From Planctomycetota bacterium (GTDB lineage Bacteria > Planctomycetota > UBA1135 > GCA-002748355), in assembly GCA_002685965.1 (NCBI GenBank), contig NYZE01000009.1, positions 2,882-66,261 of the forward strand: a stretch of 63,380 nucleotides of DNA. The letters run 5' to 3'. The notes beneath the pieces are model-generated. The model was not told the DNA's origin, ran no database searches, and worked only from the letters and a program-made list of their open reading frames with translations. The first letter of the stretch is position 1, and each line of letters opens with the position of its first letter. The position numbers and the translations under genes were made by a program. Shown here one piece after another: positions 636 to 38,468 of this stretch.

Positions 636-1994
636 TCAGTTAGGGACGATCGGCACGACCATCGGCCGCGGGAAGTCACCGCTGGCGCCGCCGAACAAGA
701 CGCGCAGGCCCTGCACGTAGATCGGCAGACCGATCAGCTTGTTGTCGTTCGGCACACCGAACGACAGCTTGAGCTCGCTATTGGCCCCGGAGCCGAGCAC
801 GAACAGGCCCTTTACCAGGTCCAGTTCGAACTGACCCTTCAGGCCGGGCAGCGTGATCGGCGTCTTGGCGAGGCCGAAGCCCATGAACATGGCGCCGACT
901 TCGCGCGGGTTGAGCGGCAGCGTCACTTGGCTGACCTTGCCCGGCCGCACCGCTGGCGCGAGGCGGGTCAACCGCGACAGGTCATAGAGGCGGACGTCCG
1001 CGCCCTTGTTGCGCTGCGGGTGCCCGACATAGACGACCGACTTGCCGTTGGGCGACCAGCGAATGCGATCCCCCATCTGGAAGTAGATGTCACTCAGCAG
1101 CGTCAGGCCACCGCCATCGGCCGGCAGGATCACCGCGCGCGAGGTGCCCAGGCCGGGACGGTGCTCGGGGATCACGATCGACTTGCGATCGCTCGAGAGC
1201 ATCGGCACTCCCCTGACCTGATGCGGCATCCAGCCCAACGGCCTTGCTGTGCCCGTCGCGACTGCCATCTGCCACACCTGGAAGCCCGAGTGGAGCGCGG
1301 CGTAGGCACCCGTGTGCGAGAACACGAAGTTCTTGCCATCGTCGAGCCAGCGCCCGTGGTTGGTCACCGACGCCAACGCTTTGGTGTTGAGCGTGACGAC
1401 GTTCTTCCCGTCGAGGTCCGCCGTGAAGAAGCGATACGTCCACAAGAACTCGGTGGCCGTGATCAGCAGTTTCTTGCCCGACGGATCCACGTCGACACTG
1501 CTGACCCCGGGAATGACCGTGATCAGATCCTCCAGCGCACCGTTGCCGAGCCGAACGCGTATGACAAACGTCTTGAAGCCCACGCGGCGCACGCCGTAGA
1601 CGAAGGTCTGGGTCGGACCGATGAAGAAGAAGTCCGACACGCCCTTGCCATCGAGCTTGGCCAGGCGCCTGGTCGTACCGCCGTCGCGGCTGGTCTGAAA
1701 TAGCTCGTCCTTGGAGAACACGAGCAACGAGGCGCTGTTGGCCTGCCACAGGTAGGTCATTTGCTGACCTGCATCAAAGGCCGTCAGCTCGATGCCACCC
1801 GCGGCTGGCTTGACGTGGAGCTTGCCCAGAGCCTGGTAGGCCACCCACACACCATCAGGCGAGAAGCTCGGGTCGGTATGAGTACGCAAGCCGGCGGTCA
1901 GAACCCGCTCCTGCGCTGCCAGGGAGGCGTTCAGCGCCAAGCCGAGGACCGGCGCCACCAGGAAAAGAATCGCCGTACGGAGGGTGGTTTGCAT
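636..1994 (-). CDS. secreted TolB-like / PD40 beta-propeller repeat protein with the recurrent C-terminal module
   Basis: 452-aa ORF with signal peptide AILFLVAPVLGLALNASLAAQ. PD40-like repeats are DPSFSPDGVWVAY, DVDPSGKKLLI and IRWSPNGKSVVYV. The C-terminal ~100 aa (FMGFGLAKTPITLPGLKGQFELDL...LIGLPIYVQGLRV) match the shared module. Confidence 0.65.
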   Translation of the reverse strand: MQTTLRTAILFLVAPVLGLALNASLAAQERVLTAGLRTHTDPSFSPDGVWVAYQALGKLHVKPAAGGIELTAFDAGQQMTYLWQANSASLLVFSKDELFQTSRDGGTTRRLAKLDGKGVSDFFFIGPTQTFVYGVRRVGFKTFVIRVRLGNGALEDLITVIPGVSSVDVDPSGKKLLITATEFLWTYRFFTADLDGKNVVTLNTKALASVTNHGRWLDDGKNFVFSHTGAYAALHSGFQVWQMAVATGTARPLGWMPHQVRGVPMLSSDRKSIVIPEHRPGLGTSRAVILPADGGGLTLLSDIYFQMGDRIRWSPNGKSVVYVGHPQRNKGADVRLYDLSRLTRLAPAVRPGKVSQVTLPLNPREVGAMFMGFGLAKTPITLPGLKGQFELDLVKGLFVLGSGANSELKLSFGVPNDNKLIGLPIYVQGLRVLFGGASGDFPRPMVVPIVPN

Positions 1995-2217
1995 GCTCGT
2001 TCACCGGAAGGGAAGGCCAGCCCTCTGTATGCTACCCCGCTCGGCAGGTCACGGGTCGACACATCGATGATGTCGACGATAGGCTGTGCCGCGGCTCTCC
2101 CATCGCCCACGGAGAGGTCACGCCGGCAAGGGGAAAACAGCTCCTCCTGCCAGCCCGGATTCCGTAACTACGGACCCGCCGGCGTCTCCCGGCGTGTCTC
2201 GCTATCTACGCCACTCG

Positions 2218-3870
2218 ATGAACCGCCTCCTACTCAATCCACTGCTCGCTCTCTTCCTCCCCATTGCCTCTACGGCCGCCCAGGGAGCCTTCAAGCCCGA
2301 CAAGCTGCCAGAAACGTGGCCCGAAGCGGGTAAGACCAAGAAGGCGGCCAAGAAGCCCGGCGCCACCAAGGACACCGCCGCGTTGCGCAAGCTGCTCGGC
2401 GATGCGAGCGTCACGCTCGTCCGCGCCGGCAAGCTGTTCCTCCCGGGGAAGCTGGGCAAGACGCCCCGCATCGTCGATGGCAAGAAATCTTGGCTGGCCT
2501 ATCGCGCCGGCGGCGTGGTCGGCCTCTTCGCGGCACCGGATCAGCCGCTGGAGATCGCTGCCAACGAAGTCAAAGCCAAGATGCTCGACTTCTCGGACAA
2601 GCCGGACAGCTTTGCCGGGCCAGGGCTGTGTGACGCGGACAGCCGGTGGTTCGTCGCCAGCGACGCCGGCGACCTGTCGGTCGGCGCCAAGGGTCAGCTC
2701 GAAATCTGGCAGGAGGGGTGGAAGGACCTCGTCTTGAAATCGGGCATCACGACGGTCTTCGTGCCTGCCGGCGGCGCCGTCGGCACGTCCGGTCCCGGCG
2801 TGCTGGTCAAGCTGGACCCCGAGAAGGGCGCGACGCAGCTTGGTCGCCCCGGCGCCAGCTACTACCAGCTCGAGCGGCTCGCTACGCGTAGCACCAACCT
2901 GACCCGCGGCGCGGTCGTCAAGTCGCTGCGCAAGGCCCTCGAGGGCGCCAAGAACTACAAGAAGGCCGACGAGAAGTGGAAGAAGGACTTCGAGGCGTAC
3001 CAGAAAAAGCGCAAGGACTTCCTTGCCCACTACAAGAAGAACCCCCTGAAGGCAGGCGAAGAGGTCAAGGCTGCCCCGGCCCGTCCGACACGGCGCGGCC
3101 GCGGGCGCGGCAGGATTCCGAGGACAAAGGAAGAGCTTGAGAAGATGCTTGAGCGCGTGCCGCCGGCGATGCGGGATCGCATCCGCAAGCAGATGGAGGC
3201 GCGCATGAAGGCGGCCGCCGACAAGGCGAAAGCCGACGCCGCCAAAGCCCCGAAAAAGACAGGAGACAAGGCCAAGCCCGACGACAAGAAGAAGGCGCCA
3301 CCGCGGCCCAAGTACCCGAAGAAGCCCAAGCACGACCGCACCAAGGAGGCGTTGCTGCGCATCCTCGACGGCAAGACCGTGCTGCGCATCGAGGCGCACC
3401 GCGCCGCTGAGATCAAGGCCGTGACCAAGCTCGCGCTCGAGTTCAAGCTGCCGCGGATCGTGCTCGTCGGCGCAACGGAGGCCTTCAAGGCCGCCGACGA
3501 ACTGCGCAAGGCAGGCGCCTTGGTCGTGATCACGCCCCAGACCCTGCCGAGACAAGGCATGGACACGCTCGAAGAACACTTCGCGGCGAACGCAGCCAAG
3601 CTCGCCGCCGCCGGCGTGCCGGTCGCGTTCGGCTCGCGAGGCAAGGAACAGGGCGCAATGCTGTCGCTCTACGCCGCTCGCTCGGTCGCGCACGGGATGC
3701 CCGAGGCGCAAGCCCTGCAAGCCCTGACCCAGAACGCGATCGACGCAGCTGGGACCTCGAAGGTCGACACCGGCATGGTCGTGTTCTCGGCCAACCCGCT
3801 GTCGCCCACGGCACACGTGCTCTGCCTGATCCGCGGTAGCCAAGTCGTCCGACTGCAAGGAGACAAGTAG
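2218..3870 (+). CDS. amidohydrolase-superfamily paralogue 1 (degenerate, no HxH), secreted, with a long Lys/Arg/Ala/Pro-rich insert
   Basis: ATG 2218 was chosen for the signal peptide MNRLLLNPLLALFLPIASTAAQG; the ORF opens at 2086. It shares the SGITTVFVPAGG..GPGVLVKL block and the helical C-terminal half with downstream paralogues. The HxH position reads PGLCDADS. A ~140-aa polycationic insert lies at nt ~2925-3350. Stop TAG 3868-3870 overlaps the next GTG. Confidence 0.6.
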   Translation: MNRLLLNPLLALFLPIASTAAQGAFKPDKLPETWPEAGKTKKAAKKPGATKDTAALRKLLGDASVTLVRAGKLFLPGKLGKTPRIVDGKKSWLAYRAGGVVGLFAAPDQPLEIAANEVKAKMLDFSDKPDSFAGPGLCDADSRWFVASDAGDLSVGAKGQLEIWQEGWKDLVLKSGITTVFVPAGGAVGTSGPGVLVKLDPEKGATQLGRPGASYYQLERLATRSTNLTRGAVVKSLRKALEGAKNYKKADEKWKKDFEAYQKKRKDFLAHYKKNPLKAGEEVKAAPARPTRRGRGRGRIPRTKEELEKMLERVPPAMRDRIRKQMEARMKAAADKAKADAAKAPKKTGDKAKPDDKKKAPPRPKYPKKPKHDRTKEALLRILDGKTVLRIEAHRAAEIKAVTKLALEFKLPRIVLVGATEAFKAADELRKAGALVVITPQTLPRQGMDTLEEHFAANAAKLAAAGVPVAFGSRGKEQGAMLSLYAARSVAHGMPEAQALQALTQNAIDAAGTSKVDTGMVVFSANPLSPTAHVLCLIRGSQVVRLQGDK

Positions 3871-5054
3871 TGGTATCGCGACGCATCGCCTTCGGCTTGG
3901 TGGTCGGGGGTGCACTGGCGCTGCTGGCGCAGAGTGCGACTGCACAGAACGCCGCGCCGAACGGACTGCTGATCCGAGCCGGCAAGGCATGGGTCGCTCC
4001 GGGCCAGGCGCTCGTGCGCGCGAGTCTCCTCGTCAAGAACGGCAAGATCGTCGATGCGGTTGCACGTCCGACGAACGACGCCAAAGAGACCTTTCTCGAT
4101 CAAGCCGACAGCGTGCGCGACTTCGGCAAGAACGCGGTGCTGACCGCCGGATTCGTCGACGTGCACACGCACGCCGGCAGCGACGGTGAACTCGCCGAGC
4201 CGGTCGAGTCGTTCACGCCGGAGCTGCGCGCGTCACGCGCGTACGACGCCTGGGCGAGCGCTTGGAAGCGCATCACGGCGCGCGGCGTGACCTCCGCCGT
4301 GCTCGCGCCCGACGACCGCAACCTCGCCGGAGGTATCGCGGCCTTCGTCGACCCCGGACTGGCGGCCGGCAGCGACGCCGACAACTACTTCAAGATGTCG
4401 CTCACCGGGGCGGCCCTCAACCGGGAACGACGGCCGACCAGCCTCATGGGCGCGGCCGACTACCTGCGCGAACGCGCTACCGAGCTACAGAACTTGGCAC
4501 CAGCCAAGATGACGCCGGCGCAGCGCGCCCTCGCCGCAGTGATCGGCGGCGGCCAGTCGGTTGGCATCGCTTGCAGCACCGTACGCGAGATCCACGCCGC
4601 GCTGGACGCGACCACGACCTACCAGCTACGGACTTTCCTGATCCACGCTGACGAAGCCGAAGAGTGCCTCGCGCGCATCGTCGGCGCCAAGGTCCCGGTC
4701 GTGTTGCGTCCGCTCGGCCTGCAGTCGTCACGCAAGCAGCTACGGTTGCCCGGCGTCTTGCAGAAGGCCGGCGTCGCGTTCGCATTCGCGGGCGAGAACG
4801 ACCAGGACAGCGGCCTGCCGGGCCTGCAAACGAGTCTCGCGATCGCGGTCCGACAGGGCATCACTGCCGCCGATGCACTCGCCTCAGTCACCACCCGCCC
4901 AGCTCAGATCGCTGGACAGTCCGAGCGCGTCGGCACTCTCTTCACCGGCCGCGACGCCGACATTCTGGTCTGGTCCGGCGAGCCGTGGGACCTGCGCTCG
5001 CGCCTGTTGGCGGTCATCCGCAACGGCACCATCCTCCACGAGAACAAGCAATGA
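3870..5054 (+). CDS. amidohydrolase-family protein 2 (HxH retained), secreted
   Basis: The GTG start overlaps the previous stop (TAGTG). Signal peptide ALALLAQSATAQ. Motifs are GFVDVHTHAG (HxH at nt 4164-4172) and C-terminal GTLFTGRDADILVWSGEP, typical of COG1228-like amidohydrolases. Confidence 0.8.
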   Translation: MVSRRIAFGLVVGGALALLAQSATAQNAAPNGLLIRAGKAWVAPGQALVRASLLVKNGKIVDAVARPTNDAKETFLDQADSVRDFGKNAVLTAGFVDVHTHAGSDGELAEPVESFTPELRASRAYDAWASAWKRITARGVTSAVLAPDDRNLAGGIAAFVDPGLAAGSDADNYFKMSLTGAALNRERRPTSLMGAADYLRERATELQNLAPAKMTPAQRALAAVIGGGQSVGIACSTVREIHAALDATTTYQLRTFLIHADEAEECLARIVGAKVPVVLRPLGLQSSRKQLRLPGVLQKAGVAFAFAGENDQDSGLPGLQTSLAIAVRQGITAADALASVTTRPAQIAGQSERVGTLFTGRDADILVWSGEPWDLRSRLLAVIRNGTILHENKQ

Positions 5055-6250
5055 GAATCGCTCTAGCTCTCCTGCTGCTGAGCTCGGCGCTCGCCGCTCA
5101 AGGTGACACCCTGGTCCTGCGCGGCGCGCGCGTCTTCACGGGCCAAGGCGACTTCCAGAAGGGGCTCGTTGTCATCGTCAAGGACGGCAAGATCGCGGCA
5201 ATCGGCCGCGACATCCCGGTGCCGCAGGGCGCCAAGGAAGTCGACTGCAAGGACAAGTGGATCACTCCGGGTTTCGTCGATGCCATGACCGCCCTCGGTC
5301 TCACCTCGATGAACGAGAACGAGGAGTCGAACGAAGTCACGCCACAGGTGCGGGCGATCAACGCGATCGACCCCGAGGCGCAGAACTTCAAGCGTGCCGT
5401 CGCTGGCGGCGTGACCACGGCCTACATCATGCCCGGACAGATGAACGTCTTCGGCGGCCTCGGCGTCGTCTACAAGACGGCCGGCAAGAGCCGCGTCGTG
5501 CGCGAAGACGCCGGCGTGCGCATGACGCTCGGGCAGATGCCCGGCTCCGGCAACCGATCGTTCCGCGGCTTCGGTGGCAGCCCGACCAGCATCTACTACC
5601 GCCGGCCGAACAACCGCATGGGTACGATCTGGGAAGTGCGACGCGCGTTCTATGACGCCATGGATGTGCGTGAAACCAACCTCGGCCCACAGCTCGAGCC
5701 GACCGCCGCCCAGCGCGTGCTGATCTCGGCTCTCGACAGGAAGATGAAGGTGCGCACGACCGCGCGCCACGGCCAGGACATCCGCACGGCGCTTCGCCTG
5801 GCAGAGGAGTTCGGCATCGCAGTGATCCTCGACGACGCCACCGAGGCCTACAAGACGCTCGACTACGTCGTTGCGGCAGGCGTGCCAGTGGTCGCCGGTC
5901 CGCCGTCGGTACAAGCCGGCTTCGACGGCTCGACCCCCCACCTTGACACCCTGGCGCTGTTGGCCAGGGCTGGCGTCGAGGTGGCGATTTCCACCGCACA
6001 GCGCCCCGACGCACTGCCACTCGTGCGCGAAGCCGGCTTCGCCGTGCGCGGGGGTATGGACCGTGCCGCAGCGCTCGCTGCGGTGACCTCGGTGCCCGCC
6101 AAGATCCTCGGAGTCGACGCCCGCGTCGGCTCTCTCGACAAAGGTAAGGACGCCGATATTGTTCTTTGGTCGCGGCACCCGCTGAGCCCGTACAGCCGCG
6201 CCGTTCGTGTTTGGGTAGACGGAGTTCCGGTCACGAAACCGAGTAGATAG
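5051..6250 (+). CDS. amidohydrolase-superfamily paralogue 3 (HxH lost), secreted
   Basis: ATG 5051 sits in an ATGA overlap with the previous stop; the longer ORF from 4664 overlaps gene 2. Signal peptide MRIALALLLLSSALAAQ. Motifs are PGFVDAMTAL in place of HxH, GVTTAYIMPG...GVVYKTAGK and GSLDKGKDADIVLWSRHP. Confidence 0.8.
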   Translation: MRIALALLLLSSALAAQGDTLVLRGARVFTGQGDFQKGLVVIVKDGKIAAIGRDIPVPQGAKEVDCKDKWITPGFVDAMTALGLTSMNENEESNEVTPQVRAINAIDPEAQNFKRAVAGGVTTAYIMPGQMNVFGGLGVVYKTAGKSRVVREDAGVRMTLGQMPGSGNRSFRGFGGSPTSIYYRRPNNRMGTIWEVRRAFYDAMDVRETNLGPQLEPTAAQRVLISALDRKMKVRTTARHGQDIRTALRLAEEFGIAVILDDATEAYKTLDYVVAAGVPVVAGPPSVQAGFDGSTPHLDTLALLARAGVEVAISTAQRPDALPLVREAGFAVRGGMDRAAALAAVTSVPAKILGVDARVGSLDKGKDADIVLWSRHPLSPYSRAVRVWVDGVPVTKPSR

Positions 6251-6260
6251 TGACAAGAAG

Positions 6261-7595
6261 ATGATGCGTATCACCCTGCTGATCGCGGCCAACGCCGCTC
6301 TCGTTTCTCTCACCCCTGCACAGCGCGTCGCCGAAGAGATCACCGCCATCAAGGCGGGCACGGTCTGGATCGGCAACGGCAAGACGCTCAAGAACGCCGT
6401 CATCCTGATCAAGGACGGCCGCATCGAGAAGGTCGGGCAGGGCCTTGAGATTCCCTGGAACGCCAAGGTCCTCGACGCGGGCAAGCGTTGGGTCATGCCG
6501 GCATGGGTAAACGCCCACACGTCGGGCGGCATGGACCAGGCGAACGAGAACATCCAGGTCACTCCGTACCTGACCGTGCTCGACTCGGTCGATCCGTCGC
6601 AGGCCTTCTTCGAGGCGAGCCGCCGCTACGGCGTCGGAACCCTGCACGTCGTGCCGGGCAACGCCTGCGCCGTCGGTGGACGCGGCATGGTCGTGCGCCC
6701 CGCGGGCAAGACGCCGGAGCAAATGGCACTCGTGTTGCGCGCGGGAATGAAGATGTCGCTGCAACCCAAGCGCGGTAGCAGCCGCAGCCGGCACATCGCC
6801 GAGATCATGAAGGCCTTCGAGGACGCCAAGGCGCACCGCGCCGAGTGGGAGCGCAAGAAGAAGGAGTTCGACGAGGACAAGAAGAACGGCGCGACGACCA
6901 AGAAGGAGTTCGAGGACAAGATCGACAAGCTCAAGCAGCCCCTGCTCGATCTGCTCGACCGCAAGACCACGGCGTATCTCTACATACCGCGCGCGTCCGA
7001 CGTTCCGGCAGCCCTCGAGCTGGTCAAGACCTACCGGTTGTCGGCGGTGTTCGTGCTCGGCGGCGACTGCTACAAGGCGATCGACCTGCTCACTGCAGCC
7101 CATCGGCAGGCTATTCCGTTGATCCTCGGCGAAACGCTTGAGATCACCGACAAGGACCCGGTCACCGAAGAAGAGAAGATCGTCTGCCCGGCGCGCATCC
7201 TCTACGACGCCGGCATCCCGTTCGCGTTGACGGCGACCGGTTCGGGTGGCCGTGGCTCTCGAGGGCGCGGCGCATCGGGCGGCACTCACCCGGCAATGGC
7301 GATGCCTTGGTGGCAGGTCGCAACCTGCGTGCGCCACGGGGTACCGGAGCGGGCGGCGCTCGAAGCCTTCACCACCATTCCCGCGCGCATCCTCGGTCTG
7401 ACCAAGCGCGTCGGCCAGATCAGCGAAGGTCTCGACGCCAACCTGCAGGTGTTGTCGGCCGCGCCCATGGAACCAGAGTGTCAGGTCGAGAACCTCGTCG
7501 TCGACGGCATACTGATCTACGACCGCAAACGTGACCCGCGCGTCAGTGAACTGACCGGCCAGACCACGACCGGTGCGAGCAAGGAGCAGAAGTGA
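6261..7595 (+). CDS. amidohydrolase-superfamily paralogue 4 (HxS), secreted
   Basis: It starts 10 nt after the previous stop. Signal peptide MMRITLLIAANAALVSLTPAQ. Motifs are PAWVNAHTSGG, the Lys/Glu-rich insert KKKEFDEDKKNGATTKKEFEDKIDKLK, and GQISEGLDANLQVLSAAP. Confidence 0.8.
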   Translation: MMRITLLIAANAALVSLTPAQRVAEEITAIKAGTVWIGNGKTLKNAVILIKDGRIEKVGQGLEIPWNAKVLDAGKRWVMPAWVNAHTSGGMDQANENIQVTPYLTVLDSVDPSQAFFEASRRYGVGTLHVVPGNACAVGGRGMVVRPAGKTPEQMALVLRAGMKMSLQPKRGSSRSRHIAEIMKAFEDAKAHRAEWERKKKEFDEDKKNGATTKKEFEDKIDKLKQPLLDLLDRKTTAYLYIPRASDVPAALELVKTYRLSAVFVLGGDCYKAIDLLTAAHRQAIPLILGETLEITDKDPVTEEEKIVCPARILYDAGIPFALTATGSGGRGSRGRGASGGTHPAMAMPWWQVATCVRHGVPERAALEAFTTIPARILGLTKRVGQISEGLDANLQVLSAAPMEPECQVENLVVDGILIYDRKRDPRVSELTGQTTTGASKEQK

Positions 7596-10300
7596 AACGT
7601 CTGCTTCTCTTTGCGCTAGCGCTGGCGACTTGTCTCTCGGCGCAGCAGCAAACCGTGATTCGAGCTGGCCGCCTCCACGTAGGTGACGGCCGCGTGCTTG
7701 AGAACACGCGCGTGCGCATCCAGGACGGCCGCATCATTGCCATCGAGAAGGACCAAGGACCGCTACCCACCGGCGTCAAGCTTCTGGACCTGCGCAAGCA
7801 GACGCTGATCCCCGGTCTCGTCGCGACGCACACGAGCCTCGCCGCGTTGGACCAGGCGCCCAACGTGTCTCCCGATGTCATCGCGGCCGACCAGTTCGAC
7901 TTCTACAAGAAGTACCCGCGGCTGGTCGCGTCGGGACTGACGACTGTCTACCTCGCGCCGGGCAAGGCGCGGCTCGTGCCGGGTCAAGGCTCGGTCGTGA
8001 AACTGGCCGGCAAGAACCCGGGCACGCGCCTGCTCAAGGAAGGGTCGGCGCTGCACTTCAACCTGCTGCCGGCCTCGCGCCGCTCGATCCCAGCGATCTT
8101 CGAGCCGACTCCGGAGCCAACGTCCGACGACCCGCTGAAGGCGGCACGCCGGCAACGCGGCGCCACGCGGCACAGCCAGATCGCCGTACTCGAGCGGGTG
8201 TTCGACGAAGCCCGCGATGCCGAGCGAACCGAAGGTGGCGAAGGCAAGCGGGCCTACGACCTGACCGCCCTGCGTTCGGTGATGCGCCGCGAGCTCCCGA
8301 TTCGACTCGCGGCATGGACCGCAGCCGACCTCGCGACCGGGCTCGATCTCGTTCGCGAACTCGGCGGCACCGCGATCGTCGAACAGCTGGCGCAACCGCT
8401 GCCGCTAGCCTCACGATTGGCCAAGGAAGGCGTCGCAGCCGTACTGCAAATGCCACTAGAACCAGCGCGCGCAGAGCGTGGCGACTGGCGGCGTGGTGAC
8501 GAGCGGACGCCGCGGCCGACGCCCGATGCGCCCGGCAAACTCGCCAACGCAGGCGTGCGCGTCGCGATCGTGCCACCGACCGACAACGACCTCGATAAGC
8601 TGCGCCTGCTCGCCGGGCTGGCCTGCCGCTGGGGCATGCAGGACAAGGACGCGCTCGCGGCCGTGACCGCGGAAGCGGCGCGGATCCTCGGTGTCGCCGA
8701 TCGCGTAGGCTCGATCGAAGTCGGCAAGGATGCCGACTTCGTCGCGCTGTCGGGGCCGCCGTTCGATGCGCGCAGCCTCGTCGAGCGCGTGATCGTCGAC
8801 GGCTCGACGGTATTCAAGCGTGAACGGCCAAGCGTGCCGTTCGCGATCCGCGCCAAGCGCATCCTCGTAGGTGACGGCACGGCGCACCACGACGCGATGA
8901 TCGTCGTCGCCAACGGCAAGATCGTCGACGTTGGCGCCCACGCCTACGTGCCGGCGGGTTCGGACATCGTCGACGCCGGTGACGCGGTCATCGTGCCCGG
9001 CTTCGTCGCCGCTGCGTCCAAGCTCGGCTTGCACGGCGACACGAAGGCCCGCTTCGCGACTGCGACGACGGTCGACGTCGCCGGCGCGCTCGATTACGAC
9101 GATCCCGCGTTCCGACACGCACTGAAGGCAGGCGTCACGACTCTGTTCGTGACCCCTGGCGACCAAGGGTTGGTCGGACCGCGTGTCTGTGCGGTCAAGA
9201 CCCATGGTAACAAGGACAACTTCGTGGTCCGCAGCGTCACCGCACTGCGCCTGACGCTGTCGGCTGGCGGCGATGCCGGCAAGAAGCAGCTACTCGGCGC
9301 CATCAAGAAGGCCCGCGACTACATCACGCCACCCAAGACGGCAGTGAAGAAGCCAACACCGAAACCGACCGCCACCAAAGAAGATCTCGATCCGATCACC
9401 GGCAGCTGGGAGGGCACGGTAAGTGGCGGCCCGCTGCCGACACCGTCGCCCTTCGACTGCGAGATGAAACTCGAGGGCGACACCGTCAACGCGACGTTGG
9501 TGACGCAGGCGATTCCGGTGCCGATCACGTTCAAGGGCACATGGGACAAGGCCAAGAAAGAGCTGGCCATGAAAGGCGACACGCCGCTCGGCGAAATCAC
9601 CTGCAACGGAACGCTCGTCGGAGTGACCCTGTCCGGGACCATCGCGAGCGCACAAGGGACCTTGCAGTTCACGATGACTCGCGCCAGTGCCGCGGTCGCC
9701 AAGAAGGCCACGAAGAAGGACGAGACCAAGAAGAAGAACGAAGCCCTCGAGCCATGGCGCCCGGTCCTCGCCGGCGACGCGCCGGTCGTTGTCCGCGTCA
9801 GCAGCGACACGGCGGCCTTGGCGGCGATCGCCGCCGTCGCAGTCGAGAGCAAGCTCAAGCTGGTGCTCGCAGGCAGTCCATTGATGCTCGTGCAGAAGGG
9901 CGTGCGTCCACCGAAGGGCACGCCGGTCGGATTCCTGATCGCGACCAACGAGGTCCTCCACGAGTCCAAGGGCAAGAAGCGCAACCTCGCGCAGGAGCTG
10001 GCGCAGCTCGGCTTCGAGGTTGTGCTCGTAACGCGCGCCCAGTTGGGCACGCGTTACCTCCCAGTGCATGCGGCTTGGGCCGTGGCAACGGGTTTCGATG
10101 CACGCAGAGCACTGCAAGCCATCACCGGCACGCCAGCAACCTGCTTCGGCCTCGGTGACCGGATCGGCCGCCTCGTCGAGGGTGCCGATGCAGACTTCGT
10201 GCTGATGTCCAGCGATCCATTCGACCTTCGGTCGCGGATCCTCGGTGTGTGGGTCGACGGCGTCAGGCACGTCGACAACGAGAACAAGGAGGGCCGATGA
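7592..10300 (+). CDS. tandem double amidohydrolase-like protein (two fused modules, HxS and no HxH), secreted
   Basis: GTG 7592 sits in a GTGA overlap, with AAGGAG at 7581-7586. Signal peptide VKRLLLFALALATCLSAQ. Module a has PGLVATHTSLA ... GSIEVGKDADFVALSGPP. Module b has PGFVAAASKLG ... GRLVEGADADFVLMSSDP. A ~100-aa beta-rich insert lies inside module b. Confidence 0.8.
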   Translation: MKRLLLFALALATCLSAQQQTVIRAGRLHVGDGRVLENTRVRIQDGRIIAIEKDQGPLPTGVKLLDLRKQTLIPGLVATHTSLAALDQAPNVSPDVIAADQFDFYKKYPRLVASGLTTVYLAPGKARLVPGQGSVVKLAGKNPGTRLLKEGSALHFNLLPASRRSIPAIFEPTPEPTSDDPLKAARRQRGATRHSQIAVLERVFDEARDAERTEGGEGKRAYDLTALRSVMRRELPIRLAAWTAADLATGLDLVRELGGTAIVEQLAQPLPLASRLAKEGVAAVLQMPLEPARAERGDWRRGDERTPRPTPDAPGKLANAGVRVAIVPPTDNDLDKLRLLAGLACRWGMQDKDALAAVTAEAARILGVADRVGSIEVGKDADFVALSGPPFDARSLVERVIVDGSTVFKRERPSVPFAIRAKRILVGDGTAHHDAMIVVANGKIVDVGAHAYVPAGSDIVDAGDAVIVPGFVAAASKLGLHGDTKARFATATTVDVAGALDYDDPAFRHALKAGVTTLFVTPGDQGLVGPRVCAVKTHGNKDNFVVRSVTALRLTLSAGGDAGKKQLLGAIKKARDYITPPKTAVKKPTPKPTATKEDLDPITGSWEGTVSGGPLPTPSPFDCEMKLEGDTVNATLVTQAIPVPITFKGTWDKAKKELAMKGDTPLGEITCNGTLVGVTLSGTIASAQGTLQFTMTRASAAVAKKATKKDETKKKNEALEPWRPVLAGDAPVVVRVSSDTAALAAIAAVAVESKLKLVLAGSPLMLVQKGVRPPKGTPVGFLIATNEVLHESKGKKRNLAQELAQLGFEVVLVTRAQLGTRYLPVHAAWAVATGFDARRALQAITGTPATCFGLGDRIGRLVEGADADFVLMSSDPFDLRSRILGVWVDGVRHVDNENKEGR

Positions 10301-11700
10301 GGCTTCATCACCTACTAGCCGCGCTGTTGTGCACCGCACCGTTGGCAGCACAGACCGCCGCCGCAAAGGCCACTCCGGCAAACAAGAAGCCGGACGATCC
10401 GCCGCCCTTCAAGATCGACTACGGCAACCGCCCGGCGCCGAAGGACTGCAAGGTCGCCAAGTGGGGTCCTGACGACTACGACTCCCCGGACTACGCCGTC
10501 TACTCCAAAAAGATCCTGACGGTGACCGGCCAGCCGATCATCGACGGCATCGTGCTCGTGCACCGCGGCAAGGTCACGGCCATCGGCAAGCAAGGCGAGG
10601 TCGAGGTGCCCGACGGCTACCAGAAGATCGACGGTGGCGACGGTTGGCTCGTGCCCGGCTTCATCGACCTGCACTGCCACGTGGCGGGTGACGGTTTCGA
10701 CCTCAATGACATGGTCCACCCGACCAACCCGGAGATGCGCACGGTCGACCTCGTGGGTCTCCACCACGATCAGATCAAGCTCGCGATTCAGGGCGGCGTG
10801 ACCTGCGTGCTCTACATCCCCGGTTCGGGCACGAACATGGGTGGCTTCGGCACGCTGACCAAGACCGCCGGCAAGAACGTCGAGGAGGCGCTCGTACGCT
10901 TCCCGGGCAGCCTGAAGATCGCCCAGGCCGGCAACCCTGAGCGCCGCATGGGTGACATGGGCGCTGGCCGCATCGGTATGAACTTCGGGCTACGCTCGAT
11001 GCTGACACGCGGACGGGACTACTACCAAGCGTGGGAGGACTACGACGCCGGCAAGCGCACCGAAAAGCCCAAGTTCCGGGCCGACCTGCATTACCTGCGC
11101 GGGCTGTTCCGTCACGAGTTCCCGTGCAGCGTACACACGCAGATCTACCAGGTGTGCCTTGAGACGTTGCGCTTGCTGCACGACGAACTGGGACTGTGGG
11201 TGTTCATCGATCACGGCACCTTCGATGCCTACCGCATGTCAGGCGAAGCGCGCAAGCGTGGCGTGCCGGTGTGCAACGGGCCGCGCCAGTTCCAACTCGA
11301 CTACGACACCGGCGCGGTGATCGGCAACGCAGCGGCATGGGCGCTGGGCGGCCGGCACGGCTGGGACAAGGACGTCCTTGGCGTCGGTCGTGACGGCATC
11401 TCGATCAACACCGACTCGCCGGTGGTGCCAGAAGAGCAACTGACGGTGCAGGCGGCAATGGCGGTTCGCCTCGGCCTCCCGGACGAGTGGGCGCTGCGCG
11501 GTCTCACGATCAACGCGGCACGCTTCGTCGGTATCGACCACAAGGTCGGCAGCATCACAGTAGGCAAGGACGCCGACATGGTGCTCTGGACAGGGGATCC
11601 GATCGACCCGCGCAGCCACGTGCGCAAGATGATGGTATCGGGGACGATCTACTACGACTGCGATCCAGGTGGCAAGGACCACGGGAAGAGGAGACTGTGA
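10297..11700 (+). CDS. amidohydrolase-family protein 6 (full metal-site motifs), secreted
   Basis: ATG 10297 sits in an ATGA overlap, with AAGGAGGG at 10286-10293. Signal peptide MRLHHLLAALLCTAPLAAQ. Motifs are PGFIDLHCHVAG (HxH at nt 10672-10680), then VHTQ, IDHG, NTDSP and GSITVGKDADMVLWTGDP. Confidence 0.85.
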   Translation: MRLHHLLAALLCTAPLAAQTAAAKATPANKKPDDPPPFKIDYGNRPAPKDCKVAKWGPDDYDSPDYAVYSKKILTVTGQPIIDGIVLVHRGKVTAIGKQGEVEVPDGYQKIDGGDGWLVPGFIDLHCHVAGDGFDLNDMVHPTNPEMRTVDLVGLHHDQIKLAIQGGVTCVLYIPGSGTNMGGFGTLTKTAGKNVEEALVRFPGSLKIAQAGNPERRMGDMGAGRIGMNFGLRSMLTRGRDYYQAWEDYDAGKRTEKPKFRADLHYLRGLFRHEFPCSVHTQIYQVCLETLRLLHDELGLWVFIDHGTFDAYRMSGEARKRGVPVCNGPRQFQLDYDTGAVIGNAAAWALGGRHGWDKDVLGVGRDGISINTDSPVVPEEQLTVQAAMAVRLGLPDEWALRGLTINAARFVGIDHKVGSITVGKDADMVLWTGDPIDPRSHVRKMMVSGTIYYDCDPGGKDHGKRRL

Positions 11701-13160
11701 TGCTCACGCTCCGAGTTTCGCTCGCCCTCGTCGCGGCGCTGTCGGTTCCTTTGCCGGTGACGGCACAGGACAGCGATGTGCTCAAGACTCCGGCCGAGAA
11801 GCTGCTGTCCGAGGCAAAGGCGACGGCATTCATCGGCGTCGACGTCTGGGTCGGGGACGGCAAGAAGAAGCTGACCGGCGTCACCGTGCTCGTCGAGGAC
11901 GGCAAAGTGAAGGAGGTCGGCAAGGACCTTTCGGTGCCGCCATCCTACGAGCGCGTCGTAGGCGGTTGTCTCACGCCAGGCATCGTCATGCTCGGCAGCA
12001 CGGTCGGCCAGTCCGGCTCGCGGCCGGCGGCCGCGAGGTCATTTGTGGTCCGAGGTCGCCGCTTCCGTGGCATGCCGTCGCGCGGCGGCAGTTCGCGCGC
12101 AACCTACACGCCCAACGTGAAAGTCACGTCGAAGCTGCGTCCGATGGACGGCGGCTGGGCTGAGTTCCTCAAGGCCGGCGTGACCACGCACGCGGTCAGG
12201 CCGGTAAAGAGCGGCCTGTCCGGACTCGGCGGCGTCGTGCGCCCGCTCGGTCGCAAGGTCGAAGACATGGTGCTCGCCGACGAGCGCTACCTCTACATCG
12301 GCATGGCAAGCAACACCGCGCACAAGAAGCTCCTCAGGGACAACTTCAAGAAGGCCAAGGAGCTGATCGAGGCGCGCAAGAAGAAACCCGCCGCCAAGAC
12401 CCCGGCCAAGCCAGCTACGAAGCCCGGCGCCAAGCCGACGACGACGCCGAAGGCAGCGACAACGAAGGCGGTGCCGCAGCCCAAGCCGCAGCCCAAGCCC
12501 GGCGGCGACAAGCCGAAGCCGGTACAGAGCAAGCCCACGCAGGCGACACCCACGACGGCTAAGAAGCCGGCCGCACCGAAGAAGAAGCCCGAAGACCCCA
12601 AGCTGGTCGTGCTCGCCAAGGCGATCGAGAAGAAGCTCGCGGTCATGCTGAGCATCAACAGCGGCGGTGACTTGCTTCACGCGCTGGACGCGCTCAGCGA
12701 CACCGACTTCCCGTTGGTCCTCATGCACCAGTTCAGCCGTGGTGCCACAGACACGCCCGACCACATGGTGGCGCAGTTGAAGAAGCGCAAGGTGCGTTGC
12801 GTGCTGTCAGCCGACCTCGGCTACGCCCCCAACACGCGCTACTTCGTCAACCCTATCGCCAAGCTCATGAAGGCCGGCGTCGAGGTCGTGTTGGTGCCGG
12901 GACGGCAACACGAACTCAAAACGCTCTGGTTCCGACTGAACGAACTGGCCCGCGCGGGCATCTCGCGGGCGAAGCTGGTGGAGGCCATCAGCGGTGCACC
13001 GGCCAAGCTCGTCGGCGTACAGAACAGAGTTGGCACGATCGCGAAGGGTATGGACGCCAATCTCCTGCACTTCAGCCGCGATCCATTCAGTCCGGCCACG
13101 CACCTCGTGCGCGTCTACTTCGAAGGACGCGCCGTCAAAGGCGTCTCGACGAAGCACTAA
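11700..13160 (+). CDS. amidohydrolase-superfamily paralogue 7 (HxH lost), secreted, with a ~90-aa Lys/Pro/Ala/Thr-rich linker
   Basis: ATG 11700 overlaps the previous TGA (TGATG), with GGAAGAGGAG upstream. Signal peptide MLTLRVSLALVAALSVPLPVTAQ. Motifs are PGIVMLGSTVG, AGVTTHAVRP...GGVVRPLGRK and GTIAKGMDANLLHFSRDP. The linker is KKKPAAKTPAKPATKPGAKP...KKPAAPKKKPEDPK. Confidence 0.7.
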   Translation: MLTLRVSLALVAALSVPLPVTAQDSDVLKTPAEKLLSEAKATAFIGVDVWVGDGKKKLTGVTVLVEDGKVKEVGKDLSVPPSYERVVGGCLTPGIVMLGSTVGQSGSRPAAARSFVVRGRRFRGMPSRGGSSRATYTPNVKVTSKLRPMDGGWAEFLKAGVTTHAVRPVKSGLSGLGGVVRPLGRKVEDMVLADERYLYIGMASNTAHKKLLRDNFKKAKELIEARKKKPAAKTPAKPATKPGAKPTTTPKAATTKAVPQPKPQPKPGGDKPKPVQSKPTQATPTTAKKPAAPKKKPEDPKLVVLAKAIEKKLAVMLSINSGGDLLHALDALSDTDFPLVLMHQFSRGATDTPDHMVAQLKKRKVRCVLSADLGYAPNTRYFVNPIAKLMKAGVEVVLVPGRQHELKTLWFRLNELARAGISRAKLVEAISGAPAKLVGVQNRVGTIAKGMDANLLHFSRDPFSPATHLVRVYFEGRAVKGVSTKH

Positions 13161-13171
13161 CCGAGAGCATC

Positions 13172-14575
13172 ATGCGATACACGACCCTGTTGACTGCACT
13201 CTGCGCGACGTCGCTCGTCGTCGCCGACCTCTCCGCTCAGCGGCGCCGTGGCCGCCGGGGCGACCGCGGCGGTCCCCCGACCGCCCAGGTCCCGACCAAA
13301 CCGGAGAAGAAGAAGGCAGCGCCGAAGAAGCCCAAGCCTCTCGTCGCCTACACGAACGCGACCGTGCATGTCGGTGACACCACGGTCTACCGGCGCGCGA
13401 CCGTCCTGCTCGAAGGAGACAAGATCTCCGAGGTCGGACCGCAGGTCGAGATCCCGAAGAGGGCGAAGACCATCGACTGCAAGGGGCAGCACATCTGCCC
13501 GGGCTTCTTCATTCTCAAGGGTGTGAACGTCGGCGCTCCGCGTAGCGTGCGCGGCGAGGAGAAGTACGGGGACGGCATCAACCCGTTCCACCCGATGATG
13601 AAGCGGGCGCTCGCGGTCGGCATCACGAGTTACCTGACGATGTCTGCAACGAGCGGCAAAGCGCCGACTGGTTCGTCGGCGGTGATCAAGCTCGTGCCGG
13701 GCTCGATCGAAGGCATCGTGGTCAAGTCGCCGGCGATCCACGCGATGTCAGTGCCGCTCGGACCGGAGGGATGGCGCAAACTCAAGGCGAGCGTCGAGAA
13801 GGCCAAGAAGTACAAGAAGGAACTGGCCGACTACGAGAAGAAAAAGGCCGCCGGCGACAAGGCTGCGAAGAAGCCCAAGGAAGACAAGTCGCTTGCCGCG
13901 CTGCTCTCGGTCATGGACGGCAAGACGAGGCTACAGATCAACTCGTCATCGACACCGATGTTCCGCTCCGGTGGCAGAATGCGCTTCGGCGGATCCGCGA
14001 TGAGCATGCGCGTGCCGCATATCCGTGAGGCGCTGCAGGTCGGCAAGCTCTTTGGTGCCCCGGTCGTGCTCGACAACCCGAGCGAGGCTTGGATCGTCGC
14101 CGACGAGATAGCTGCAGCAAAGGGCGCCTGCGTGCTCCTGCCCCGCTCGCAGGTCGCACCAGATCCCAAGGTCTCCGAGCCAAACGGCTCGACGATCCAC
14201 GCCTGTGCGATTCTGTCCGAAGCCGGCGTGCCAGTCGCCGTCTTGCCCGGTGGCGGCATGTTCGGCAGCGGCATCGGCAACGGCGGGATTCTGGGCCAGG
14301 ATTTGAACACGCCAACACTGGACCCTTGCTTTGCGATCCGCGGTGGCATGGACGCCAAGGAAGCACTGTCCACGATTACGCTCTATCCGGCCATGCTCGC
14401 CGGCGTCGACGACCGAATCGGCTCCCTGGAGGTGGGCAAGGACGCCGACCTCTTGATCCTGGACGGCGACCCGTTGCACTATAAGACCTTCGTACAAACG
14501 GCCGTGGTAAACGGTAAAGTGGTCTACGAGAAGGCCAAGGAGCCCTTCTACCGCCACGTCCGACCGCGGAACTGA
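13172..14575 (+). CDS. amidohydrolase-superfamily paralogue 8 (HxH lost), secreted
   Basis: ATG 13172 lies 11 nt after the previous stop. The signal peptide MRYTTLLTALCATSLVVADLSAQ is followed by a basic RRRGRRGDRGG...KPEKKKAAPKKPKP stretch. Motifs are CPGFFILKGVNVG, EKAKKYKKELADYEKKKAAGDKAAKKPKEDK and GSLEVGKDADLLILDGDP. Confidence 0.75.
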   Translation: MRYTTLLTALCATSLVVADLSAQRRRGRRGDRGGPPTAQVPTKPEKKKAAPKKPKPLVAYTNATVHVGDTTVYRRATVLLEGDKISEVGPQVEIPKRAKTIDCKGQHICPGFFILKGVNVGAPRSVRGEEKYGDGINPFHPMMKRALAVGITSYLTMSATSGKAPTGSSAVIKLVPGSIEGIVVKSPAIHAMSVPLGPEGWRKLKASVEKAKKYKKELADYEKKKAAGDKAAKKPKEDKSLAALLSVMDGKTRLQINSSSTPMFRSGGRMRFGGSAMSMRVPHIREALQVGKLFGAPVVLDNPSEAWIVADEIAAAKGACVLLPRSQVAPDPKVSEPNGSTIHACAILSEAGVPVAVLPGGGMFGSGIGNGGILGQDLNTPTLDPCFAIRGGMDAKEALSTITLYPAMLAGVDDRIGSLEVGKDADLLILDGDPLHYKTFVQTAVVNGKVVYEKAKEPFYRHVRPRN

Positions 14576-14664: not shown

Positions 14665-15084
14665 ATGAACCCAGAGATCATCCGCGAGATCGAAGACATC
14701 CTTCGGTCGATGCGACAGGCCTACAACAACCAGGACATGAAGTCCTACCGCAGCTTCTTCTGGACCAACCCTCGCTTCCTGCACGTCGACTCGTCCGGTC
14801 GGGTCGACAAGGGCTGGGGGGCGTTCGAAGAGGTGCTCGATCAGGAGTTCCGTTATCTCGACAAGGTCGATCTGACGGTGCGTGGGCCCCAGATCCAGGT
14901 GTTTGAGGACAAGTTCGCCGTCGTGTTCGCCGAGTGGCGCTTGGTCACGGTTGACCCCTCGGGACGGGAGCAAGACACGGGCGGTCATGTGACGTATTCG
15001 CTCGTCCGCTTCGGCAAGGACTGGAAGATCGTCAAGACGCACTACGCGAGTCTCGAGCAGGTCCCGAACGAGTCAGGCGGGTAG
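14665..15084 (+). CDS. SnoaL/NTF2-like (DUF4440-like) small protein
   Basis: 139-aa ORF with AAGGAG 11 nt upstream. The pattern MRQAYNNQDMKSYRSFF...FAVVFAEWRLV...VRFGKDWKIVKTH is typical of an NTF2-fold cone. Confidence 0.65.
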   Translation: MNPEIIREIEDILRSMRQAYNNQDMKSYRSFFWTNPRFLHVDSSGRVDKGWGAFEEVLDQEFRYLDKVDLTVRGPQIQVFEDKFAVVFAEWRLVTVDPSGREQDTGGHVTYSLVRFGKDWKIVKTHYASLEQVPNESGG

Positions 15085-15196: not shown

Positions 15197-16978
15197 CTAG
15201 CCGCCGAGAAACTTCTTGATCGCGTCCGCGAAGGCCGGGGTCACGCTGAAGCTGGCCCTCACGTAGCGATCTCCTTCCTTCCAGAACAGGAAGACCGGAC
15301 TGCCCTTCGCCAGGTCGAAGTGGTTCCAGAGGACCTGCAAGATGAAGGCATCCTTCGACGGGACAAGCACGCGGTTGAGCGGAAGGAGGCCGTCCTTGGC
15401 CTGCACCTCAACCTGGGCGGCACCAATAGAGCTGGCGATCGCAACCTGTCCGGCGAAGTCGGGGCCAACGCGGTAGCCGATGGTCTTCTTCGCCAGCGCA
15501 TGCACTGCCGGTTCGTCGAGGGTTCCATCGAAACCGACCGGCACGGCAACCTCCCGCGTGCTGTCCGGTGCAAGCACTGGCTCGACGTCGGTGCGGCCGG
15601 CGCGGATCCACGCCTTCAGCCCACCGCATACGAGCGCCCGTGTTGCGGGCGGGAACCGAGGGTGTAGAGGGGTGAGCGTCACGAGCTCGCGCGCGCGTTC
15701 GGCGAACGGCGGTTTGGCACACGAGCCAAGCCCCCACAGGAAGCGATACGGGTCACGTCCCGCATCGGCGAGCACGACCGGGTCCCCTGGCTCGAGTTGC
15801 TCGGCGCAGGTGGCCGCGCTGTCGAGCACGGCTCGAACAAAGCCATCGTGCACGCGAAACTCGGCGCGGCGGTCGCGATGCGCGGGCCAGAGGAAGATGA
15901 TCGGCAGCATCGCCAAGACCAGGGTCGGCAGCGGCCGTCCGCGCGTGAAGCGTGCCGCAGCCACTGCCCAAACGGCTAGCACGCCGGCACATGCAAGATA
16001 TGCGAACCGTTGGTCGCCGCTGCGCATTGCCGGCAGGACCTGGGCCAGTGGTCCGAACAGGCCACCGGCGAGCAACAACACACCGGCGAGTTGTCGCTTC
16101 CACGCCGAGCGCACCATCAGGACGCCGAGCAGAGCAAGGACTGCAACTGCCACGAGCTTGCGGCCCTGATCGGGCAGCCCCGGGTTGAGCGCGCCGCCAA
16201 TCGTATTCAGCAAGCCGCCGGTCATGCCAGCGAGATCGAAGCCGGCCAGCGCCTGGAAGCGATAGCCGCCAACGATGTGACCAAGCACGACGAGCCGTAG
16301 CAGCAGGAAGGCGGGGATCAGGAGCAAGTATGGCAACGCCGGTAGCGCTCGCCCGAACAGCGCCGGCGCTGGGCGGTAGCTCGGATGTGGATCGAGCAGG
16401 TCGATACCGAGCGCAAGCAACGGAAAACCTATCGCAGATTCCTTCGTGGCAAGGGCAACGAGGACGGCCGCCCAAACGGGCCAGCGCTTGCCGCCGCGGC
16501 GCAGGCGCAGGTGGAACCACAGCGCGAGCAACAACGGCGGTGCAACGTGCGTGTCGACGCGTCCGGCACCCCAAGCAGCGGACGGAACAACGATCGGGTG
16601 CGCGATCCACAGCAGCGCGACGGCTGCAGCGAGCGCCAGGCCGGTGGCCCCGCCGACGAGTTCACGAAGGAGTGTGAACAGCAGCACTGCGGCGACGCCG
16701 ACCGCGAGTGCGTTCATGAGCAGAAAACCGAACGGATCGGCGCCAAACAACAGGTTGTCGAGCCCAAACGACAGCGTGATGAACGGCCGGTAGAAGCTGA
16801 AGAAGGTCAGGTCGTACTGCGGGCCAGCGAAGTCGGCGAGGCAGTTGGTCAGGTCGGAAGCGTAGCGGATCGCGACGTAGTCATCGGACTTGAGCTCGGC
16901 GCCGCCGGGCCAGTGCAGCGCGAGCGCGGCAGCGACGAGTGCCAAGCAGACGAACGGGACGAGGCGGGGGCCGAACAC
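15197..16978 (-). CDS. polytopic membrane protein, GT-C fold glycosyltransferase (PMT_2/TMTC-like, no TPR tail)
   Basis: 593-aa ORF with at least 10 hydrophobic segments. The N-terminal DDYVAIRYA...FYRPFITLSFGLDNLLFGADPFGFLLMNALAV matches the YRP..LS...D......P.G.H..N signature of PMT_2/TMTC-type mannosyltransferases. The GTG start lies immediately after the upstream stop. Confidence 0.6.
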   Translation of the reverse strand: MFGPRLVPFVCLALVAAALALHWPGGAELKSDDYVAIRYASDLTNCLADFAGPQYDLTFFSFYRPFITLSFGLDNLLFGADPFGFLLMNALAVGVAAVLLFTLLRELVGGATGLALAAAVALLWIAHPIVVPSAAWGAGRVDTHVAPPLLLALWFHLRLRRGGKRWPVWAAVLVALATKESAIGFPLLALGIDLLDPHPSYRPAPALFGRALPALPYLLLIPAFLLLRLVVLGHIVGGYRFQALAGFDLAGMTGGLLNTIGGALNPGLPDQGRKLVAVAVLALLGVLMVRSAWKRQLAGVLLLAGGLFGPLAQVLPAMRSGDQRFAYLACAGVLAVWAVAAARFTRGRPLPTLVLAMLPIIFLWPAHRDRRAEFRVHDGFVRAVLDSAATCAEQLEPGDPVVLADAGRDPYRFLWGLGSCAKPPFAERARELVTLTPLHPRFPPATRALVCGGLKAWIRAGRTDVEPVLAPDSTREVAVPVGFDGTLDEPAVHALAKKTIGYRVGPDFAGQVAIASSIGAAQVEVQAKDGLLPLNRVLVPSKDAFILQVLWNHFDLAKGSPVFLFWKEGDRYVRASFSVTPAFADAIKKFLGG

Positions 16979-37257: not shown

Positions 37258-37284
37258 GTCGGGAGAAGTTGCTTGTCCCCGGAG

Positions 37285-38430: not shown

Positions 38431-38468
38431 CCGGTAAGCTTGCGACCCCGAAGACGCCTTGTCGAACA

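Follow-up and report, generated by a model that had tools for sequence, protein, structure and literature searches.

An array of eight consecutive, co-directional open reading frames (ORFs), here ORF1 to ORF8, was analysed in a 63,380-nucleotide (nt) stretch of DNA from a Planctomycetota bacterium (contig NYZE01000009.1, positions 2,882 to 66,261 of the forward strand), hereafter referred to as the window. The array occupies positions 2218-14575 of the window and encodes nine modules of the amidohydrolase superfamily, among which that of ORF6 is predicted from its metal ligands to be the only catalytically competent one. The remaining modules (ORF1, 2, 3, 4, 5a, 5b, 7 and 8) are putative pseudoenzymes, i.e. 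members of the family by fold and not functional enzymes, because their metal ligands have been lost across the phylum. All eight ligand-less modules have nonetheless been retained and evolve as 1:1 orthogroups. In our judgement the chances are about even that the array encodes the exported subunits of a single hetero-oligomeric hydrolase in which ORF6 provides the catalytic subunit.

Organisation of the array and its metal ligands

An earlier note on this DNA, made from the sequence alone, had listed eight consecutive forward-strand ORFs, and all their coordinates, starts and stops were confirmed. ORF1 (2218-3870, ATG start, 550 amino acids, aa) is followed by ORF2 (3870-5054, 394 aa), whose GTG start overlaps the ORF1 stop codon (TAGTG), and by ORF3 (5051-6250, ATG, 399 aa), which is joined to ORF2 through an ATGA overlap. 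ORF4 (6261-7595, ATG, 444 aa), ORF5 (7592-10300, GTG, 902 aa, two modules), ORF6 (10297-11700, ATG, 467 aa) and ORF7 (11700-13160, ATG, 486 aa) come next, and ORF8 (13172-14575, ATG, 467 aa) closes the array. The block of about 12 kb hence holds eight ORFs and nine modules, all on one strand. The stop/start overlaps and very small gaps that had been described were found at every junction (-1, -4, +10, -4, -4, -1 and +11 nt from ORF1 to ORF8). Terminator-like hairpins inside the array were in no excess over shuffled sequence (10 versus 11.2 +/- 3.3), in agreement with the earlier impression, and neither were promoter-like sites (1 versus 1.1); an Rfam search of the array matched no family. The presumed promoter region upstream of ORF1 (1995..2217, forward strand) measures 223 nt, lies between divergent genes and is shared with the PD40-like gene described below. 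It yielded no sigma-70-like site and no Rfam family, and we infer that the array promoter lies within it.

The earlier note had also credited every ORF with a signal peptide of its own. All eight products do begin with a hydrophobic core (maximum 10-residue Kyte-Doolittle mean of 2.1-2.65) followed by A|Q, a call made with a hydrophobicity heuristic and not with SignalP, so that the pattern stands and its identity as a signal peptide is to be read as signal-like. By the same heuristic, about 30-70% of the detected orthologue N-termini carry the core and the A|Q, the proportion varying by orthogroup. The G+C content of the window is about 65% throughout. Identical proteins and the same array were found on independent marine metagenome contigs from four sources and orthologous arrays are widespread; an assembly artefact was therefore rejected.

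To follow the active site through the array, the six ligands of ORF6 and of the related PDB structure 3OOQ (HxH of beta1, Lys of beta4, His of beta5, His of beta6 and Asp of beta8) were mapped onto each orthogroup through profile alignment. In ORF6 the set comprises H126, H128, K207, H280, H306 and D373 and is of the binuclear-metal type; all six are present in 66/67 ORF6 orthologues and in 53/53 extra ORF6-type copies of related loci. No member of the array is better conserved than ORF6, which scores about 500 bits to its orthologues versus 60-400 for the others. What the earlier note had taken for eight amidohydrolases are indeed putatively exported paralogues of the superfamily, but just ORF6 keeps the ligand set and eight modules are predicted pseudoenzymes. 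Likewise, the motif that it had placed at the HxH position of every module is a true HxH in ORF6 (DLHCH) and ORF2 (DVHTH) only and is degenerate in the other seven.

In ORF1, 3, 4, 5a, 5b, 7 and 8, four to six of the six ligands are gone, in the window and phylum-wide, and are replaced mostly by the non-metal-binding residues A, G, V, L, M, T and R. The six positions read D, R, Y, E, V, K in ORF1; M, A, R, T, D, R in ORF3; A, K, R, R, A, R in ORF5b; G, T, Y, S, G, R in ORF7; and K, V, A, M, gap, G in ORF8. ORF4 keeps only the first His (H86, in 63/75 orthologues) and the Lys (K164, in 71/75), the other four being lost. ORF2 of the window retains the HxH, the Lys and the beta6 His, with the beta5 His replaced by Ala and the beta8 Asp by Glu; of its 66 orthologues only 6 have the second His and only 19 the Lys, and most are without nearly all ligands.

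Conservation of the array and simpler relatives

When one genome per GTDB species was scanned with a peptide pattern, 152 genomes proved to contain relatives; all ORFs of 80 loci were then assigned to the proteins of the window for gene order and module counts. This search for syntenic arrays recovered the same gene order across Planctomycetota, with 43 complete arrays among the 80 loci; the order ORF1-2-3-4-5-6-(extra ORF6 copies)-7-8, on one strand, holds in essentially every locus that is long enough. The coupling and the individual export signals reported for the window extend to these relatives, where every junction has a median gap of -4 to 0 nt and, by the heuristic above, a signal-peptide-like N-terminus stands at the coupled start. 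An ordered array that is found again in dozens of species-level genomes goes far beyond what chance would produce. The flanks of the related loci contained no conserved accessory genes (PD40-like, SnoaL-like and S15 peptidase genes recur in two to seven of them), so that the unit under selection is the array and not its neighbourhood. Its origin is ancient.

Homologues of the two-module ORF5 protein (about 900-950 aa) form 336 clusters of 90% identity (E ≤ 1e-5), and the named organisms among them are Planctomycetota, Phycisphaerales or Gemmataceae. Fusion of ORF5a to ORF5b was seen in all arrays. ORF1 is fused to ORF2 in Tautonia and in three further loci (L077, L083 and L084; some Gemmataceae and Phycisphaerae metagenome-assembled genomes, MAGs). 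In the cultured Tautonia plasticadhaerens ElP (CP036426.1, about 3.027-3.050 Mb) the array consists of seven genes with nine modules, the fused ORF1+ORF2 product being 900 aa long.

The number of ORF6-type genes per complete array is 1, 2, 3 and 4 in 11, 24, 7 and 1 loci, respectively (n=43), and the modal count is ten modules (24/43 complete arrays). On a rough neighbour-joining tree of the ORF6-type copies, the copies next to ORF7 group together in one clade (42/43 copies) and the ORF6 of the window belongs to the other clade; the tree is distance-based and deep, and its reading is provisional. Provisionally, then, these sequences suggest two ancient catalytic paralogues, of which the lineage of the window, together with L005 and L006, would have kept one only.

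Two MAGs labelled Chthonomonadaceae / Chthonomonadales (Armatimonadota), L057 and L064, also carry the array, which is complete in L064, where the sole ORF6 groups in the clade termed 'beta'. Their arrays would reflect either lateral spread or mis-binning. A TrpD-like gene (354 aa; Glycos_trans_3N + Glycos_transf_3) comes immediately after the array in two distant genomes of planctomycetes (L085, 18299-19363; L086, 21114-22178), with nucleoside-catabolism genes upstream of the array in L085; no TrpD-like gene adjoining the array was found in the window.

Distant matches of ORF1 lead to proteins of about 440 aa, some of them named Acidobacteria or Pyrinomonadaceae. Three non-array loci were examined in full (L088, L090 and L091), and 3/3 contain a coupled pair of 3OOQ-like genes in which the first (gene A) retains the full set of six ligands and the second (gene B) has lost five of them. 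These pairs belong to the same subfamily as the array, both products have signal-like N-termini and the genes overlap or are nearly adjacent. They differ from the array in having two genes as opposed to eight to eleven, in being without the two-module fusion and in the presence of a Peptidase_S10 gene, which adjoins or lies near all three pairs. From the three pairs it follows, therefore, that the pairing of an active with an inactive member is a property of the subfamily, and the planctomycete array is its extreme elaboration. No characterisation of pairs of this type was found in the literature.

Family membership, inserts and neighbouring genes

The paralogy of the nine modules, and their deep divergence as opposed to a recent duplication, had both been proposed from the letters and are borne out. 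In all-against-all BLASTP the modules share 22-38% identity, and orthogroup profiles derived from the related loci aligned with the ORF6 profile over the full length, at a probability of 100% for every orthogroup (hhalign). Recent tandem duplication was rejected because the modules share just 22-38% identity and orthologous arrays are widespread. ORF1, the most diverged of the pseudoenzyme modules, has only weak BLASTP links, to ORF3, ORF4 and ORF8, and an E value of 4.7e-62 (probability 100%) for its orthogroup against the ORF6 group.

Searches with Pfam hidden Markov models gave a divided result. ORF2, 3, 4, 5, 6 and 8 pass the gathering cut-off of PF01979 (29.8-81.5 bits; cut-off 25), with 44.8 bits for ORF2, 29.8 bits for ORF4 and 48.3 bits, in the C-terminal part only, for ORF8; the matches are confined mostly to the C-terminal 60-100 residues. 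ORF7 remains under the gathering cut-off (19.6 and 25.1 bits), and no amidohydrolase model matches ORF1. Both were counted as members of the superfamily because of their hhalign probability of 100% against the ORF6 group, and in the case of ORF1 also because of its fold. Orthologues of ORF1 carry the database label hypothetical protein. The name 'ribosomal protein S17', given to ORF1 in one public source, was rejected as an artefact, as its Pfam S17 score (17.9 bits, cut-off 25.9) arises within the Lys-rich helical insert.

The closest solved relative is 3OOQ, an amidohydrolase of Thermotoga maritima deposited by structural genomics with function unknown. ORF6 matches it over the full length (E 6.5e-46) with all six ligands aligned, the next best sequence match being Cc2672 (E 1.5e-11). 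It is also the best PDB match of the AlphaFold2 (AF2) models of ORF5 (predicted local distance difference test, pLDDT, 86; predicted template modelling score, pTM, 0.62; template modelling score, TM, 0.82; E 2e-29) and ORF1 (pLDDT 80, pTM 0.72; TM 0.71, E 1.7e-17). Beyond 3OOQ the fold matches of both models drop to TM ≤ 0.6, the runners-up for ORF5 being 3FEQ, 3MTW and 9KOV. In BLASTP, 3OOQ scores 30-171 bits against the array modules; at 165 bits, ORF3 is by sequence the non-catalytic module closest to the 3OOQ-type ancestor. Taken together, the BLASTP, profile, fold and ORF6 sequence matches therefore show that the entire array derives from one 3OOQ-like amidohydrolase subfamily.

A COG1228-type assignment, to which the earlier note had pointed, was not supported, since prolidase, HutI and similar models all miss their curated NCBIfam cut-offs. 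For the Caulobacter-type Xaa-Pro dipeptidase model NF051886 the best scores are 98.9 bits for ORF5 and 69.9 bits for ORF6, against a cut-off of 500, and for HutI (TIGR01224) the array maximum is 72.8 bits against a cut-off of 298. The database name 'imidazolonepropionase-like' is unsupported because these scores lie far below the curated cut-offs.

The PDB entry 3OOQ contains 10 chains, and a docking benchmark labels it as having dihedral symmetry (bioRxiv 10.64898/2026.08.06.736029). As in the modules of the array, its Lys strand is connected to the beta5 His strand through a helix-plus-linker segment, which is where the array members have their inserts. Unlike the array, with its nine different, putatively exported modules of which eight are ligand-less, it is one protein crystallised as 10 identical chains. 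The PDB sequence used in the alignment starts at the mature domain. The second tier of sequence and fold matches is made up of the COG1228-type exported carboxypeptidases and prolidases (Cc2672, 3MTW; Sgx9260b/c, 3FEQ/3N2C/3MKV) and the ochratoxinase-type enzymes (4C5Y, 8IHQ), which share with the array the superfamily and the two-domain fold, are exported, as is predicted for the array products, have binuclear metal sites and form large homo-oligomers. Their similarity is far weaker (E 1.5e-11; TM about 0.5-0.6), and they differ from the array in being encoded by single genes and in forming homo-oligomers without pseudoenzyme partners. Ochratoxinase is a D4 homo-octamer (PMC11342369), and together with the 10 chains of 3OOQ this makes large oligomers the norm for this fold family.

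Full-text literature searches found no description of the eight-gene array, in keeping with the earlier note, and none of pseudoenzyme partners in the 3OOQ subfamily or of a function for 3OOQ. The fold, the superfamily and the theme of pseudoenzyme partners are known; the array itself is undescribed in the literature found.

The modules differ chiefly in what they carry at a single site, which lies between the beta5 strand and the helix after the Lys strand, and the length classes of the inserts at this site are conserved inside each orthogroup. The ORF1 insert (2944..3378, forward strand, residues 243-387; 144 aa, net charge +28) is a long helical hairpin with a Lys/Arg/Pro-rich linker, and its length class is kept in orthologues (median 99 aa). 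ORF7 has a Pro/Lys/Ala/Thr-rich linker (12351..12638, forward strand, residues 218-313; 95 aa, net charge +20), of which both the Pro-richness (median 19%) and the length (median 92 aa) are kept in orthologues. Smaller inserts occur in ORF4 (48 aa, net charge +2) and ORF8 (42 aa, +7). The basic charge was considered as a functional clue, for example to the binding of an anionic polymer, and was rejected, as the +28 of ORF1 and the +20 of ORF7 in the window contrast with an orthologue median of about 0.

ORF5 divides into module a (7592..8836, forward strand, residues 1-415), a putative pseudoenzyme that is fused to module b in all relatives, and module b itself (8837..10300, forward strand, residues 416-902), likewise a putative pseudoenzyme. 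The insert of module b (157 aa, net charge +4) contains a conserved, eight-stranded, all-beta domain that opens with G-x-W (9401..9682, forward strand, residues 604-697; AF2 secondary structure). G604, W606, G649 and G682 are invariant in 25 homologues, and the domain has no PDB sequence match at E ≤ 10 and no Pfam match.

The rest of the window contains no further amidohydrolase genes and offers an ordinary chromosomal context. Directly upstream of the array a divergent gene (636-1994, reverse strand) encodes a PD40 / Tricorn_N-like beta-propeller protein of 452 aa, a neighbour shared with L007 and L011 only. A SnoaL-like/DUF4440 gene (14665-15084, forward strand) lies 90 nt past ORF8 on the same strand, and in seven related loci a homologue likewise follows the array; a further DUF4440 paralogue (33501-33947, reverse strand) lies 19 kb away. 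An X-Pro dipeptidyl-peptidase gene (S15 + PepX_C; 22041-23891, reverse strand) is found 7.5 kb from the array. The gene at 16979-19567 (reverse strand), whose product of 862 aa carries a planctomycete cytochrome c domain (PSCyt1) at its C-terminus, stands beside that of a PMT_2-like membrane glycosyltransferase (15197-16978, reverse strand), and this pair, common only to the closest relative, L005, supports the Planctomycetota origin of the window.

Further along are a single tRNA gene (19746-19819, forward strand; Rfam RF00005, 68 bits) and a gene for the isocitrate dehydrogenase kinase/phosphatase AceK with both of its domains (25165-26925, reverse strand; E 5e-107 and 3e-86), a protein that is mostly associated with Proteobacteria. 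A Bat/aerotolerance-like cluster (36265-44831, forward strand) comprises genes for a MoxR AAA+ ATPase, a DUF58 protein, an unassigned ORF and VWA, BatD-like and TPR/SH3 proteins. A 698-aa protein with multihaem cytochrome c motifs and C-terminal TPR repeats is encoded at 54291-56387 (reverse strand), and genes for MsrAB, glycosyltransferases and aconitase are also present in the window.

Explanations for the array and their significance

A hetero-oligomeric hydrolase is the best explanation for the array because gene order and coupling are fixed, ligand-less paralogues are retained, neighbouring modules have fused, active/inactive pairs occur elsewhere and the relatives are large homo-oligomers. 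These points lend indirect strength to the hetero-oligomeric assembly suggested in the earlier note. The physical assembly, stoichiometry, cellular location and substrate are proposed here from these observations. The array would form one operon of a marine planctomycete, and the overlapping stop and start codons would bring about the co-ordinated synthesis of its products, which would be Sec-exported and periplasmic or displayed at the cell surface. All nine modules stem from one 3OOQ-type amidohydrolase with a (beta/alpha)8 barrel and a composite beta-sandwich. Catalysis would fall to the ORF6 subunit, equipped with a binuclear metal centre and a carboxylated lysine, and ORF1, 2, 3, 4, 5a, 5b, 7 and 8 would fill the remaining positions of the former homo-oligomer. 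Through their module-specific inserts at a single surface site, namely the helical hairpin, the Pro-rich linkers and the beta domain, the pseudoenzymes may gate the active subunit, target it or help to shape it. A peptide or an amide of the N-acyl-amino-acid type is the probable substrate, to judge from two hints, the distant similarity to carboxypeptidases of the Cc2672 type and the nearby S10 and S15 genes; this peptidase context is weak but recurrent, with S10 by all the pairs and S15 in the vicinity of the array both in five related loci and in the window.

Assemblies of differentiated paralogues with inactive subunits are known from the eukaryotic 20S proteasome, CCT and the pseudo-dihydroorotase of Pseudomonas ATCase. 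The pseudoGTPases of septins are a further case (PMC10731463). The proposed logic of the array is the same, in that a homo-oligomer gives rise to many paralogues, most of which lose catalysis and are kept as obligate partners. Unlike the array, these systems have another fold, and the likeness is one of analogy only.

Several observations weigh against a single hydrolase complex. Complete arrays contain anywhere from 1 to 4 ORF6-type genes, a poor fit with one rigid stoichiometry. Export of the array products relies on a hydrophobicity heuristic, and no curated family cut-off was reached, the best case being NF051886 at 98.9 bits against 500. At locus L071 (5238-13521) the equivalents of ORF1-5 are followed by 10 kb in which no homologue of ORF6-8 occurs. 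Of the loci with sufficient flanking sequence, this one alone shows a clearly broken array, which may be due to a rearrangement or a misassembly. Finally, several pseudoenzyme groups have conserved residues of their own at former active-site positions (for example ORF4 K164 and Y241, ORF5b R138, ORF7 R101), and such group-specific residues would also fit independent ligand-binding proteins.

The main rival, which we consider rather unlikely, is that one hydrolase is co-regulated with eight independent non-catalytic binding proteins that have kept the old substrate pocket, serve for example in the periplasm or at the surface to capture or sense ligands related to the substrate, and form no stable complex with ORF6. 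Besides the conserved residues which each pseudoenzyme orthogroup has at its former ligand positions, the conserved beta domain inserted in ORF5b could bind a ligand, and a variable number of ORF6 genes is easily explained without a fixed complex. However, strict order with overlapping codons across a phylum and the fusion of neighbours are more typical of the subunits of a complex; the recurrence of a coupled active/inactive pair and the large homo-oligomeric state of the closest solved relative also speak against independent binders. We regard as improbable a structural role in which the pseudoenzymes form a Planctomycetota-specific lattice or scaffold of the envelope or periplasm, with ORF6 as a processing or maturation enzyme. 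Such a role would suit the near phylum-wide and apparently phylum-specific occurrence of the array, the long Pro-rich or helical arms of several members and the heuristic export signals on all products, but the array has no link to envelope genes and its flanks are not conserved, the pairs elsewhere adjoin a carboxypeptidase gene, which points to catabolism, and ORF6 is the most conserved member. It is very improbable that the array is a multi-enzyme catabolic operon of eight active hydrolases for different substrates, the diverged ones having a non-canonical catalytic site. This is what the annotation 'amidohydrolase family protein' assumes by default, and ORF2 of the window, which keeps 4/6 ligands, would agree with it; against it, 4-6 of the 6 ligands are replaced in 7/8 non-ORF6 modules (ORF2 loses two), and the losses are conserved phylum-wide. 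We know of no amidohydrolase-superfamily enzyme that functions without the beta1, beta5, beta6 and beta8 ligands.

A more specific form of the hetero-oligomeric hydrolase is put forward tentatively, as an idea that we hold to be more doubtful than credible: a fully differentiated hetero-decamer of pseudo-D5 symmetry, derived from a 3OOQ-type homodecamer, in which each position is taken by its own gene product. The idea comes from the ten-module mode (24/43) and the clade of ORF7-adjacent ORF6 copies (42/43) on the rough neighbour-joining tree. The ancestral ten would be ORF1, 2, 3, 4, 5a, 5b, 7 and 8 together with ORF6-alpha and ORF6-beta, the lineage of the window having lost beta. If true, the decamer would be a bacterial counterpart of the subunit differentiation of the proteasome and CCT, with one or two active sites per particle.

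For the annotation of these genomes, the analysis corrects a recurrent problem, as the labels 'amidohydrolase' and 'imidazolonepropionase-like' stand on genes that are mostly predicted not to encode enzymes, and orthologues of ORF1 are called hypothetical and, in one case, ribosomal protein S17. With one cultured host known and two-gene relatives for comparison, the array is a tractable system in which to ask how homo-oligomers become obligate hetero-oligomers and why dead subunits persist. Should the products assemble, they would represent an unusually elaborate case of bacterial subunit differentiation, with eight pseudoenzyme paralogues around one to four catalytic subunits in an order fixed phylum-wide. 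In either case, the array constitutes a phylum-wide set of putatively exported proteins of unknown function in the Planctomycetota, which are important in the turnover of carbon and nitrogen in the sea and in soil.

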